Assembly: GCA_019338205.1 (NCBI GenBank)
Contig: GCA_019338205.1_4761.1
Strand: one strand, 5' to 3'
DNA: 64,000 bases
Source: a phage
The position numbers and the translations under genes are program-made. The notes beneath the pieces are model-generated. The model ran no database searches. It was not told the DNA's origin and saw only the letters and a list, made by a program, of their open reading frames with translations. Numbering within the stretch: position 1 is the stretch's first letter; every line of letters starts with the position of its first letter. Below are positions 42,975-64,000 of this stretch, piece by piece.

Positions 42975-43006
42975 AAGCCGATCCTTGTGGTCGGCTTTTT
43001 TATTTT
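42975..43006 (+). terminator. rho-independent terminator
   Basis: AAGCCGATCCTTGTGGTCGGCTT hairpin followed by TTTTTTATTTT. Confidence 0.75.
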
Positions 43007-43015
43007 AAAAAGTTG

Positions 43016-43044
43016 TTGACTTCACGAATCCAGCCTCGCATAAT
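43016..43044 (+). promoter_or_regulatory. sigma70-type early promoter with conserved ATAATACAC.CATACCAA leader
   Basis: TTGACT 43016-43021, 17-nt spacer, CATAAT 43039-43044. Confidence 0.55.
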
Positions 43045-43075
43045 ACACACATACCAAACAAAAGGAGAATCAAAG

Positions 43076-43348
43076 ATGAGCAACGAAAACAGCAAAGTGT
43101 TAGCAATTGCAAATAAAGTAGGTTACTGGAAATGCTGGGATGATATGGAGAAATTAGGCGGTCGCTATCTCGATAACTTAGAGTTGCATTATTGCCAAGC
43201 GCGTAATGCAGAAGTTGCGGGAGTAGCAATCGAAGATATTCCGTCTAAGGTCTTCGGATTCTCTAAAGATGATACTTTAGAATATGTTTTCAAGGCTGTT
43301 ATGGATCAAGCATGGGAAGACGCAGAGACACGCGCTCTTGATTGGTGA
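43076..43348 (+). CDS. hypothetical protein
   Basis: ATG 43076 after AAAGGAGAATCAAAG; 90 aa. Confidence 0.6.
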   Translation: MSNENSKVLAIANKVGYWKCWDDMEKLGGRYLDNLELHYCQARNAEVAGVAIEDIPSKVFGFSKDDTLEYVFKAVMDQAWEDAETRALDW

Positions 43349-43352
43349 TAAT

Positions 43353-43514
43353 ATGAACTGGTATAAAATTTGGAAAAATCAGGTGGAGGCTTATCTAGGG
43401 TATAAGCCCACCGACGAAGAATTACTTGAAGCAATGTACGAAGACGGACTAAATCCGAAAGTAGCCGCGCAAGAATACGCGGAATGGGTGAAGGTCGAAA
43501 ATAATTTAAAATAG
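43353..43514 (+). CDS. small hypothetical protein (53 aa)
   Basis: track ORF 43284..43514 trimmed to ATG 43353. Confidence 0.45.
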   Translation: MNWYKIWKNQVEAYLGYKPTDEELLEAMYEDGLNPKVAAQEYAEWVKVENNLK

Positions 43515-43578: not shown

Positions 43579-43791
43579 ATGAAATCTAGTGAGCAAGTAG
43601 TGACTGAATTTATGAGCTACGAAGGAAACCGCATCTTTGGACGTTCTCAAGTTCGCGAGATCGTAGAAGAAGTTGCGGGAGAGTTTGCGGAATCTGGTCA
43701 CGTTATCACGCAAGAACGTAAAGAAGAAGCAGTAAGCCAGATCATGGCTATGCAGAAAATGCGTATTAATGCACGAGCGGGTAAAAATTAA
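43579..43791 (+). CDS. hypothetical protein
   Basis: 70 aa; GAAGGAGAATCAC leader. Confidence 0.6.
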   Translation: MKSSEQVVTEFMSYEGNRIFGRSQVREIVEEVAGEFAESGHVITQERKEEAVSQIMAMQKMRINARAGKN

Positions 43792-43801
43792 AAAATAGTT
43801 G

Positions 43802-43830
43802 TTGACAGGGGATCGGCGATCCCCTATACT
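43802..43830 (+). promoter_or_regulatory. PeSL-like early promoter
   Basis: TTGACA 43802-43807, palindrome GGGGATC-GGC-GATCCCC in the spacer, TATACT 43825-43830. Confidence 0.55.
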
Positions 43831-43861
43831 AAACTCATCAAGACAACGAAGGAGAATCAAA

Positions 43862-44017
43862 ATGAAACATACTCACAAATTAATGGTTAAATTTTAAGGC
43901 GCTAAAGGATATGAACGTTACGGTGTATTCTTCTCTGAGGATGATGCATGGAATGCTGGTCTGGCAACGTTCGCCGAGCACAACAACATTGAAGACTTTA
44001 CTGTAGAAGAAATTTAA
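43862..44017 (+). pseudogene. small ORF interrupted by an in-frame TAA after codon 11 (nonsense allele or readthrough candidate)
   Basis: ATG 43862 with AAGGAGAATCAAA RBS; MKHTHKLMVKF, then TAA at about 43895-43897, then 39 further in-frame sense codons to a stop at about 44015-44017. Confidence 0.4.
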
Positions 44018-44024
44018 AAAGTAG

Positions 44025-44053
44025 TTGACACCGGATTAAGGGAGTAGTAAGAT
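44025..44053 (+). promoter_or_regulatory. PeSL-like early promoter
   Basis: TTGACA 44025-44030, TAAGAT 44048-44053, GGGAGTA/TACTCCC inverted repeat. Confidence 0.55.
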
Positions 44054-44087
44054 ACTCCCATCAAGACAAAACACTGAGGAATATATT

Positions 44088-44846
44088 ATGAAAAACATTA
44101 TCGCTGCTATCGTTCTTTCTGCTACTGCTTTCGGTGCTAACGCTGCGTCCTTTGATTGCGCTAAAGCTACTACCAAATCAGAGAAGTTTATTTGTGCTAA
44201 TGAGTCTATCTCCGCACTGGACTCTAAACTTCATGAAGTGTATGTTAAGGCTGTTAAGATTGATCCGTCTCTGAAACAAGAGCAACGAAACTGGAATAAA
44301 ACTGTTCGTGATACAATGATCAATATCGGGCAGATTCAGCCACTGGAGGCTGTATACAACGCTCAAATCCAAAACTTGATGAATGTATTACCTAAAGAAG
44401 AAACCGCGTCAGAAAGCGATTCAGAGACTTCTGCGAAGGTTGAAGAAGAACAACCGAAACAGGAAGCAAAAGTGGTAGAAGAACCGAAGGTCGAAACTTT
44501 TACCTATCAATGCACTGTTCGCTATGAGTGGAGTATTAAAGATGGAATTTCTACCAAAATTAAAGAAGCGCCACTGTATGCCAAATATGGAAATCAACCA
44601 GGAGATCTTAAAGTAACCATTAAAAATGGGAAGATGGTTGATTTTGTATACATTGATGAATACAACGTACACAAAGCAAACGTACAAGAAACCGTTATGA
44701 CTAAAGGCGGGTTTTATAAGAATGTTGGCAAGAAAGATCTATATGAATACTCCGTTTTCGAACCAAACGACGGAACTATTCGATTTGAAAAACGTCATCC
44801 TACATTCGGTGGAGCAATTGATGTAGATCAATACGTTTGCAAGTAA
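44088..44846 (+). CDS. secreted protein with LprI/DUF1311-like N-terminal domain
   Basis: signal peptide MKNIIAAIVLSATAFGANA; SFDCAKATTKSEKFIC...LDSKL..VY...QRNW...RD pattern typical of DUF1311; acidic linker; 252 aa. Confidence 0.7.
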   Translation: MKNIIAAIVLSATAFGANAASFDCAKATTKSEKFICANESISALDSKLHEVYVKAVKIDPSLKQEQRNWNKTVRDTMINIGQIQPLEAVYNAQIQNLMNVLPKEETASESDSETSAKVEEEQPKQEAKVVEEPKVETFTYQCTVRYEWSIKDGISTKIKEAPLYAKYGNQPGDLKVTIKNGKMVDFVYIDEYNVHKANVQETVMTKGGFYKNVGKKDLYEYSVFEPNDGTIRFEKRHPTFGGAIDVDQYVCK

Positions 44847-49071: not shown

Positions 49072-52000
49072 TTAACCAAATAATTTTGCTTCAATTGCAG
49101 CAAGACGATCATGAAGAATTTTATTTTCTTCTTTCAGACGGTTATTTTCTTCTTTAAGAAGTGCGATTTCTTCGGTGTGTTCGTTGATTGCCGCAGTATT
49201 TAAACCAATTACACCGTTATAGTTCAAACGAAGTAGAGCTTCGCCATCAGGGTCACCTTCAACTAATTCTGGTAAAATAGCTTGAACTTCTTGAGCAATT
49301 AAACCGGCGTTAGGTTCCCATTTCTGATTGCCTTCTTCATCTAGGCCTCGCTTCTGCATATAAGTGTAACCATTAATTTTGGAAAGCCTCTCAGAAGCAT
49401 TTTCAAATTTAACAAGGTCTTTTTTAACACGAATATCAGAACGAACATAAACATCGCGGACATATGTGGAATAGGAATCGCTTTGTTGGATTAAATGACC
49501 AAAAGAAATAATAGCTCTTCCGTGTTCAGTCCACAGAGCACCAGTGGTATCCCAAAGACCTTCATGGAGATGGTAAGCGGACGACCATGAAGCAATATGC
49601 ATTCCATTTGCAACCATATTGATTCGGCCGTCACCACCATGAACTAATCCAGTATCATTATCACCAATAACAACACATGCGCCTGTCCATACAGGGTCAC
49701 CTCCACCAGCTGATACTCTTACTCCAGCTTTAACCATGTCAGGAACGTACATGTTTCCATTATGGTGGAATTCGAAGACAGCTTGCGGATCAGAACCATT
49801 TTCCTGGTTACCTACACGAATAATACCTTGTGCCCAGTTATTAGGAATGCGTCGCATACCAAAATCAACGCCAGAAAAATATCCTTCGTTAGTAATACCA
49901 GATTTTCCTTTAATAATAGGGTAATAGCAGTCATTACCGACATAACCAAAATCCACAAATATAGGAGCTTCTTGACGCCATTGATTTCCCCAATCGCCGG
50001 CCTGGTGTGCGATCCATTGTGTACCGTTTATATGAAGGCGGTCTCTATTAAAATTAAATGTTCCTTGTCCTTGAGGAGAAAGCGATATTTCGCCGTTATT
50101 TGTTATGTATACAGCGCCTTGTGTAATGTAACTGTAAAAGCCTAGACCATTGTCACCACCGCCTTTGCCTATATACCAGTTACCTGTACCGTCTATGTCA
50201 CCACGAATATGCAAAGAATTACTAGCAGTTGTTGATAATACAATAGAATCACCCGGACGTTTAATAATCAATCTACCTTCGGATTCAACTTCACCAAAAA
50301 ATTTAGTCTTAATTGCACCAGTCGCTAAAGTACGTTCAGTGGAAAAATGAACGCCTTTGCTATCTTCTAACTGGATGATGTTATCACGAGCATTATTACT
50401 ATCACCCCAATGGTTAAATTTAAAATAATCTCGTGATCCTAAACGTCCGGCGTCAAAAATCATCAAGCCTTTCATGTTAATATCACCACCAAAAAATGCG
50501 GTGAGAGAATCACATTTTAATTTTAAAACGTTAGCACGACTAGTACCACCTAAAGAAACATCACCAGTGCTAAATTCATAACTGAAAGGTCTATTTGTAT
50601 TAAAGTTTCCATCTTTATCATTTTCGTCGGTGGAAAGAATATAAAGACGCGAGCTATCAGCACGGAAAATTGTACCAAAATTTCCGCCATACATACGGAA
50701 AGCATTAGCTGGGCGGAATTTAACTTCTGCGTTAAAAGTTGTAGTTGATTTAAACGTGGTTGCAGCACCGAAGTTAACTGCACCATTAAAATCTTGTTGA
50801 GCTGTCCATGTATGGCGACCATCTTCAAGAACAACACGACGAACTCTGCAACTTCTATTTCCCGGATTACCAGCAACACGAACGACAAAATAACGGTAGT
50901 TATTTTGTGTCACAGTACCGCGCCAAACCTGAACAGTACGCCCTGTGCTAGTGTGTTCGCTAGGACCGACGGAAAACAGAATCAAGTTTTCATCAATCGT
51001 GCCCCAATCCATATTTTCTGGCATGTTCTTTATTTTGTTCAAAGGAACGCTAAACATACTACCGGGGACAAAATCAAAAGTTTGCCAATCTAACTCTGTT
51101 AATTTAGATTTAACACCACCCATACCCAAAGTAATTGGCATAGAATAGGACGTATATACTTCGTACCAATTGCCCCAGATGTTATTTGTCATCGCACGTT
51201 CAAACACGCGAGATCGCGTAGTTTCACCCGTTCCTGCGGTAGTGAAACGTTGGAAAATAGCGCCGCCGGAAGCACGCTGTTTAACCTCAAGCAATCCGGT
51301 CATCTCAACCGGAACACCTTCTGCAACTGGACGGTTAATAACGGCATCAGTGCCTAAAATATTATATAAGCCAGGAGAACGAAAATTATTAAGATCCCCG
51401 TCATAAAATGTGCTGGGAGTAACCATGCCTACTTGTTGCCACGGTCCCCAATTCGGAGCTTCTGGATCCCATGCACCAGCAAGACAACGAACATATACAA
51501 CACCCATTCGGGTAGTATAACGTTGCGTGCGAGAATAGTTACCACCTTCATAAATTTCTAAAAGACCTTGCGCGAGACCACCTTCTTCTGGGTAATTTCG
51601 AGAAAATGATGCAATGGAACTTGAACTATTTCGCCATAACCCAAAATGAGAAGCATCACCTAAAGTATTCAAGTCTAGTGTAGTTGATAGTGGACGTGTG
51701 CCAGTTTGAATATTGCGCCACGGACCCCATGGACCATCTACGCCATTCCATTTCGCGGACAAAGAACGGATATAAACGTTACCAGACCGAACCGTATAAC
51801 GCTGAGTGCCAGCAAATTGACCAGCCACAAATACTTCTAATACACCTACAGCATTCTCTTCTGGGAATTTATTTGCTGGCTGCGCATTTGTTGAAGTTGA
51901 TTTAGACCAAACGCCAGTAAATTTACCAGTAGGTCCATAATTATCTAAATTTGCATCAGATGGCAACTCACCGCGAAAGTGTCCCAAAGTAATTACATTA

Positions 52001-52134
52001 TTGCTGTCATCTTTTGTATATAGTTCTCGATCCGCTAGGTTAATAGCAAGTTCACCCGGAGTTAGAATATTCGCATCCGGCTTGCGACCTGCCGTACTTG
52101 TTCTTTTAAATTGGATTCTCTGTAAATCTGCCAT
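49072..52134 (-). CDS. 37: long tail fibre distal subunit gp37 with C-terminal intramolecular chaperone domain
   Basis: N-terminus MADLQRIQFKRTSTAGRKP...GELAINL...TKDDS matches remembered T4 gp37; C-terminal 150 aa look like the self-cleaving chaperone of tailspike/endosialidase proteins (SDIRVKKDL...NAGLIAQEVQAILPELV...). Confidence 0.9.
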   Translation of the reverse strand: MADLQRIQFKRTSTAGRKPDANILTPGELAINLADRELYTKDDSNNVITLGHFRGELPSDANLDNYGPTGKFTGVWSKSTSTNAQPANKFPEENAVGVLEVFVAGQFAGTQRYTVRSGNVYIRSLSAKWNGVDGPWGPWRNIQTGTRPLSTTLDLNTLGDASHFGLWRNSSSSIASFSRNYPEEGGLAQGLLEIYEGGNYSRTQRYTTRMGVVYVRCLAGAWDPEAPNWGPWQQVGMVTPSTFYDGDLNNFRSPGLYNILGTDAVINRPVAEGVPVEMTGLLEVKQRASGGAIFQRFTTAGTGETTRSRVFERAMTNNIWGNWYEVYTSYSMPITLGMGGVKSKLTELDWQTFDFVPGSMFSVPLNKIKNMPENMDWGTIDENLILFSVGPSEHTSTGRTVQVWRGTVTQNNYRYFVVRVAGNPGNRSCRVRRVVLEDGRHTWTAQQDFNGAVNFGAATTFKSTTTFNAEVKFRPANAFRMYGGNFGTIFRADSSRLYILSTDENDKDGNFNTNRPFSYEFSTGDVSLGGTSRANVLKLKCDSLTAFFGGDINMKGLMIFDAGRLGSRDYFKFNHWGDSNNARDNIIQLEDSKGVHFSTERTLATGAIKTKFFGEVESEGRLIIKRPGDSIVLSTTASNSLHIRGDIDGTGNWYIGKGGGDNGLGFYSYITQGAVYITNNGEISLSPQGQGTFNFNRDRLHINGTQWIAHQAGDWGNQWRQEAPIFVDFGYVGNDCYYPIIKGKSGITNEGYFSGVDFGMRRIPNNWAQGIIRVGNQENGSDPQAVFEFHHNGNMYVPDMVKAGVRVSAGGGDPVWTGACVVIGDNDTGLVHGGDGRINMVANGMHIASWSSAYHLHEGLWDTTGALWTEHGRAIISFGHLIQQSDSYSTYVRDVYVRSDIRVKKDLVKFENASERLSKINGYTYMQKRGLDEEGNQKWEPNAGLIAQEVQAILPELVEGDPDGEALLRLNYNGVIGLNTAAINEHTEEIALLKEENNRLKEENKILHDRLAAIEAKLFG

Positions 52135-63481: not shown

Positions 63482-63509
63482 TTGACATGCTTATGTGGTA
63501 ATGTATAAT
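63482..63509 (+). promoter_or_regulatory. sigma70-type early promoter
   Basis: TTGACA 63482-63487, 16-nt spacer, TATAAT 63504-63509. Confidence 0.6.
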
Positions 63510-63539
63510 GCACACATCGAAACAATGGAGGATAAAAAT

Positions 63540-64000
63540 ATGTTAGTACGTCAAGCGCATGAAATTGAATGGACTAAGGAGAAACATAATTGTAGAGCGA
63601 AAAGCCCAACAGATTTTTATGGTAAAATTTTAGAAATATGTAAAACAGAAAATTTAGTTTTTGTCGGCTTTGTTGGTGAGTGGAAAGGATGCCGCACAAA
63701 AATAAAACTTAGCTGCAAACACGGTCATGAATGGATATCTTCCATATTACATTTTGTGTATCAAAATACTCGCTGTCCTGTATGTGTTGGTAGATTGTCT
63801 ATCGACGATAGAATGATACAGATTAATCAAGTTTGCAATTCTTTAGGTTATGTAATAATTAAGATCCACGAAGAATGGAAAAACACAGAAACTAAAATTG
63901 ATGTTAAATGTTTATGTGATTATATATGGACAACAACAATACATAGAGTCATACATGGGACTACAGGTTGCAGAAAGTGTGCTACATATGGATACAATAC
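63540..64000 (+). CDS. Cys/His-rich repeat protein, partial (runs off the window end); possible free-standing endonuclease
   Basis: ATG about 63540 after GGAGGATAAAAAT; two repeated modules C.HGHEW...CPVCVG and KCLCDYIW...GCRKC; 3' end not in window. Confidence 0.45.
   Translation, partial: MLVRQAHEIEWTKEKHNCRAKSPTDFYGKILEICKTENLVFVGFVGEWKGCRTKIKLSCKHGHEWISSILHFVYQNTRCPVCVGRLSIDDRMIQINQVCNSLGYVIIKIHEEWKNTETKIDVKCLCDYIWTTTIHRVIHGTTGCRKCATYGYN

Follow-up and report, generated by a model that had tools for sequence, protein, structure and literature searches.

How should a phage reading frame be understood when it stands behind a strong promoter and ribosome-binding site, stops after 11 codons and then stays open, in the same frame, for dozens more? 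The question is raised by positions 43862-44017 (plus strand) of the 64-kb stretch of phage DNA analysed here (the window), in which an ATG at 43862 opens the peptide MKHTHKLMVKF, a TAA follows at 43895-43897, and 39 further in-frame sense codons (GAKGYERYGVFFSEDDAWNAGLATFAEHNNIEDFTVEEI) lead to a second TAA at 44015-44017. The original prediction had described exactly this order, as a direct reading of the frame confirms, and had left the choice between a natural nonsense allele, a sequencing error, and a readthrough or leader-peptide arrangement. On composition alone the 39-codon open stretch is unremarkable, the chance of that many sense codons following a stop being P about 0.07 at 40.5% GC, and it is homology that gives the stretch its meaning. 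The features concerned are these:

43783 to 43830, plus strand: PeSL (promoter-early stem-loop), made up of an AT-rich upstream element, a -35 element, a spacer hairpin and a -10 element
43850 to 43854, plus strand: Shine-Dalgarno sequence AGGAG, 7 nt 5' of the ATG at 43862
43862 to 43897, plus strand: remaining translatable ORF, 11 codons (MKHTHKLMVKF) and the premature TAA
43895, plus strand: G-to-T substitution, private to this genome, by which the GAA of Glu12 becomes TAA
43898 to 44017, plus strand: remnant that is presumably no longer translated, with codons 13-51 of the ORF261c ortholog and the original TAA
44006 to 44061, plus strand: next PeSL, with -35 TTGACA at 44025-44030, -10 TAAGAT at 44048-44053 and hairpin GGGAGTA-GTAAGA-TACTCCC

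The signals in front of the short frame are as had been proposed. Its promoter pairs a -35 element, TTGACA (43802-43807), with a -10 element, TATACT (43825-43830), across a 17-nt spacer; the pair matches 11 of 12 consensus positions and is sigma-70-like and near-consensus, and the whole of the spacer (43808-43824) is a G/C hairpin, GGGGATC-GGC-GATCCCC, with a dG of -14.3 kcal/mol and a z-score of -2.96, which folded better than any of 200 shuffled versions. This combination of a strong sigma-70-like -35/-10 pair, AT-rich sequence upstream and an adjacent stable stem-loop is the PeSL architecture of RB49-type phages, which the arrangement at 43783-43830 matches, and in vivo promoter and terminator activity has been demonstrated for other PeSLs, copies elsewhere than 43783-43830 (PMC2839356). 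The ribosome-binding site is equally sound, AGGAG lying 7 nt from the ATG. The AAGGAGAATCA motif (repeat family D4) recurs 5' of neighbouring ORFs, and the 5' parts of the PeSLs (the AAAAATAGTTGTTGAC repeat, family D1) are found at 42997, 43499, 43783 and 44006. Judged by its elements, the PeSL at 44006-44061 closes the cassette and should drive the downstream homolog of RB49 ORF260c independently. That homolog (44088-44846, plus strand) is a protein of 252 aa with a signal-peptide-like N-terminus and a Pfam LprI (lysozyme inhibitor) domain at residues 24-76, scoring 25.8 bits against a curated cut-off of 22 (E 1.4e-5), and early expression of a secreted LprI-like protein, as the sequence predicts, is a curious thing to find in a lytic phage.

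The identity of the interrupted frame comes from its relatives. Megablast assigns the window to the genus Krischvirus (RB49-like T4-type coliphages), and because the nearest records over 24 kb are 94-97% identical and mosaic, the source phage is a distinct isolate outside the collections searched. A 156-nt CDS is annotated at exactly the same place in RB49 (RB49ORF261c), G5211 (G5211_00259), JSE (EpJSE_00266) and Phi1 (phi1p263), and the intact 51-aa ortholog has the product MKHTHKLMVKFEGAKGYERYGVFFSEDDAWNAGLATFAEHNNIEDFTVEEI. The window shares its PeSL promoter, ribosome-binding site, position and 156-nt frame with RB49 ORF261c (AAQ15468.1), Phi1 ORF263 (ABR24772.1) and JSE EpJSE_00266 (ACL78215.1), and synteny is kept, the frame sitting between the ORF262c and ORF260c homologs. 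Compared with RB49 ORF261c, 155 of 156 nt and 50 of 51 codons are identical, and the protein encoded by the remnant equals residues 13-51 at 100% identity; codon 12 is TAA here and GAA in the ORF261c family, which leaves 11 translatable residues. When the stop is repaired, the 51-aa protein matches phrog_19699 with an E-value of 3e-41 over positions 1-51 of 51, so that of the attributes of this family the homology over all 51 codons and the synteny are both present and only the uninterrupted 51-aa frame is missing. From this comparison the locus belongs to the RB49 ORF261c family as a nonsense allele or pseudogene, not as a functional member.

Other parts of the window also depart from RB49. 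The distal tail-fibre gene gp37 (49129-52134, minus strand) is 35-68% identical to RB49 gp37 in patches, with neighbours at about 99%, and it looks like a swapped receptor-recognition module, which would fit the mosaicism of the nearest records; divergence of this kind is expected of a host-range protein such as the distal tail-fibre adhesin gp37. No equivalent of RB49 ORF238c is present in the window, ORF239c finds a match of only about 24% identity near the window end, and the gene content beside frd and gene 32, at 63495-63992 (plus strand) and at the window's 3' end, seems unlike that of RB49.

The difference at codon 12 is a single base. Aligned across the ORF with RB49 and G5211, the window differs only by a G-to-T change at 43895, which converts GAA (Glu12) to TAA, and this is the one column of the ORF where the window alone departs from the other four aligned sequences. 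Orthologs had been named in the original prediction as the place to look for a sense codon, and they supply it throughout: codon 12 is GAA in 25 of 25 related loci read directly. A 30-mer carrying the T allele, built so that no 28-nt megablast seed could avoid the T, retrieved 0 records among 50,697 phage genomes, the corresponding G-allele 30-mer used as a positive control matched 24 records, and the remaining records, which have variants nearby, all proved to be GAA when read directly. Furthermore, the exact T-allele pattern had no match in IMG/VR, degenerate pattern scans of IMG/VR and of metagenome contigs returned GAA alleles and no T allele, and a pattern scan of GTDB genome contigs gave zero matches, while a divergent homolog with 78% protein identity, present on 18 contigs, keeps both the 51 codons and the GAA at codon 12. 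With Glu at this position in every related locus read, the suggestion of a natural nonsense allele is supported, and the reading I consider very probable from these comparisons is a strain-private ochre loss-of-function allele of a dispensable PeSL-cassette ORFan, the ortholog of RB49 ORF261c.

An allele seen in one sequence only might also be a sequencing or assembly error, in which case the real phage would carry GAA and an intact 51-aa gene, or a minority variant that the assembly has fixed, and a little room has to be left for this. The frame is otherwise identical to RB49 and G5211, with 0 further differences across 156 nt, and such a lack of further decay fits a very recent mutation and equally an error. 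Public data suggest that errors do occur at this locus, in that three other alleles there are disrupted by +1 homopolymer insertions, a typical error signature: phage Whisky (MZ504878.1, 382-540 of the excerpt) has GGTG changed to GGGGG, a +1 shift at codons 20-21; metagenome contig MAVA01000080.1 has GAAGAC changed to GAAAGAC, +1 near codon 45; and ERZ28620656 scaffold_47 (89.5 kb; 1501-1660 of the excerpt) has GGGG changed to GGGGG, +1 at codon 31. These three disruptions appear independent and could stem either from faulty sequencing or from true slippage, and whichever cause applies, the ORF261c family often appears broken in databases. The change in the window, however, is no homopolymer indel but a G-to-T substitution, and at the depth to which phages are normally sequenced a wrong base rarely survives into the consensus. 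When the 97 CDSs annotated in the part of RB49 equivalent to the window were compared with it by tblastn, 93 were full-length, free of stops and frame changes and had a median identity of 98.9%; ORF261c was the sole one with an internal stop, none was frameshifted, and the other genes that were not clean were the divergent gp37 and two at the window edge that are replaced. A low-quality assembly was accordingly rejected, there being no frameshift across 64 kb and 93 clean alignable genes, and since the assembly is free of frameshifts and looks accurate, a consensus substitution error is unlikely as well. I infer that the T allele is genuinely present in the phage stock, and with it I return to the loss-of-function reading.

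Did the relatives ever use the whole frame? With the RB49 allele set against the divergent one, dN/dS (Nei-Gojobori) comes to 0.17 over the entire frame and 0.14 over codons 13-51, with dS about 0.82, and among 16 distinct alleles many codons vary synonymously only. The whole 51-codon frame, codons 13-51 included, is under purifying selection in the relatives, which rules out that this family is built as a brief leader ORF with non-coding RNA behind it. A non-coding downstream region in orthologs, the outcome against which the original prediction had set itself, is thus the reverse of what the dN/dS of 0.14 indicates.

The same results bear on the idea that the 11-codon ORF is itself functional, as a leader peptide or regulatory small ORF, with the stretch downstream serving as regulatory RNA. 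A very short ORF with a strong ribosome-binding site behind a strong promoter does resemble such a device, but an 11-codon ORF with its stop at codon 12 occurs in this genome only and was not found in the other phages searched, the relatives have a continuous 51-codon ORF that is selected over its full length, and the gene that follows is served by a separate promoter, with a PeSL hairpin before it, so that there is no target for attenuation. I regard this explanation as scarcely credible.

Nor is there much to recommend functional recoding, in which readthrough of the UAA, an ochre suppressor of phage or host, or a downstream restart would still allow the whole protein or its C-terminal part to be made. 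The promoter, the ribosome-binding site and the 39 codons after the stop, still in frame, are all intact, but an intact remnant is expected of any recent mutation. Genuine genes of the window use TAA as their stop more often than any other codon, in 56 of 93 cases, and TAAG, the tetranucleotide of the premature stop, ends 14 of the 93 and is in this respect ordinary; UAA is moreover the stop that is terminated most efficiently in E. coli, which counts against recoding. ARAGORN found no tRNA genes, suppressors included, in the 64-kb window. The stop itself is unconserved, the 25 loci read having GAA, and the relatives thus encode Glu directly, so readthrough is not a conserved feature. As for restarts, the codons 3' of the premature TAA include no in-frame ATG, GTG or TTG, only a CTG at codon 34 and ATT at codons 43 and 51. 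Genome-wide recoding of a stop codon was considered separately and rejected, no other compared gene in the window having an in-frame stop. Recoding is in sum highly improbable, and the readthrough or leader-peptide arrangement originally put forward goes unsupported, given the continuous 51-codon gene of the relatives, the normal TAA and TAAG stop, the window without a tRNA and the lack of a canonical restart. A bolder form of the idea would have the source phage or its propagation host supply a UAA suppressor and ORF261 act as a low-level, conditional, natural suppressor-dependent dosage switch on the PeSL cassette, and the likelihood of this I put at very slight.

What was lost with the stop can be described from the intact protein. 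It has no Pfam match, and phrog_19699 has no assigned function; a search of 5.8 billion proteins gave four 90%-identity clusters only, all of them Krischvirus-like, and a profile search of 1.84 billion representatives found nothing beyond the ORF261c family. AlphaFold models the intact protein with a pLDDT of 71 as beta-beta-alpha-beta, with strands at residues 3-11, 17-24 and 46-50 and a helix at 28-40, and Foldseek returned no significant structural match in the PDB (best E 0.67), while in BFVD the RB49 ortholog itself was the sole significant match. PaaB and RB69 Dmd, which look alike at a TM of about 0.6, were set aside with E-values above 0.6. From its PeSL promoter ORF261c is presumably an early gene, and in terms of the model the 11-residue product would amount at most to the first predicted strand.

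The cassette as a whole comes and goes among these phages. The ORF is missing from 23 of 59 matching Krischvirus records, which match the downstream PeSL only, and the ORF together with its upstream PeSL (43783-44005) is an exact 223-nt insertion/deletion unit, bounded by repeated AAAAA(T/G)TAGTTGAC PeSL 5' sequence. Phage GEC-3S (HE978309.1) and 22 other Krischvirus records lack exactly these 223 nt, as expected of an ORFan inserted or deleted through PeSLs, and the GEC-3S junction, at about 895-915 of the excerpt (L027), falls inside the repeated AT-rich/-35 part of the PeSL, at the place of the closing PeSL (44006-44061). The unit is a clean example of PeSL-mediated cassette gain or loss, and PeSL regions have been described as rich in non-essential ORFans shuffled via PeSLs (Arbiol et al., PMC2839356). 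Since the PeSL-bounded cassette is missing from 23 of 59 related genomes, loss of the ORF261c ortholog is evidently tolerated, and since the downstream gene has its own PeSL promoter, no polar effect is expected.

The region just upstream is variable too. Overlapping small ORFs lie at 43013-43348 (111 aa, with a TTG start as called by program) and 43284-43514 (76 aa) on the plus strand, and further PeSL-like promoters occur at 43016 and 43518. Among the relatives, an additional ORF263.1 is present in Phi1, and where RB49 has an ORF of 177 nt, that of G5211 and JSE measures 162 nt. On these comparisons 43013-43514 appears to be a hotspot of cassette variation.

A simple course of events would connect these observations. 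The ancestor would have carried a 51-aa early ORFan in a cassette of 223 nt bounded by PeSLs, located where Krischvirus genomes are hyperplastic, and a single G-to-T transversion at 43895 would then have put an ochre TAA in place of the GAA of Glu12. Transcripts presumably still start at the PeSL promoter and translation at the strong ribosome-binding site, and ribosomes would terminate after 11 residues, the first predicted beta-strand, giving a peptide that is probably without function and leaving no functional product. The mutation would be neutral or nearly so and without polar effect, because the gene is accessory and its downstream neighbour has a separate PeSL promoter. Such a mutation is ordinary and the locus is of a known type, with no readthrough or leader-peptide device.

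For annotation, the locus should be entered as a pseudogene or nonsense allele of the ORF261c family instead of a new small ORF, and it has little significance beyond that. The allele adds slightly to the evidence that the phage can do without this PeSL-flanked ORFan when growing on its isolation host, evidence that otherwise consists of the relatives without the gene and the three disrupted database alleles. If the allele is real, the source phage is also a ready natural knockout for probing the function of ORF261c.

Besides the ORF261c genes themselves, the closest known systems include the cassettes of PeSL and ORFan in RB49-type phages (Arbiol et al. 2010, PMC2839356; Comeau et al. 2014, PMC4122927), in which an early promoter and a G/C hairpin likewise flank a small ORFan and presence/absence polymorphism has its junction inside the PeSL, as here; whereas those cassettes lose genes by PeSL-mediated excision or replacement, the gene here has been inactivated by a point mutation. 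In that respect it recalls the classical ochre (UAA) mutants of the T-even phages, where a single-base change likewise creates a UAA in a phage ORF and expression would need an ochre suppressor. The classical conditional-lethal mutants, however, concern essential genes and depend on suppressor hosts, whereas the gene interrupted here is a dispensable ORFan and the phage propagates without a suppressor.
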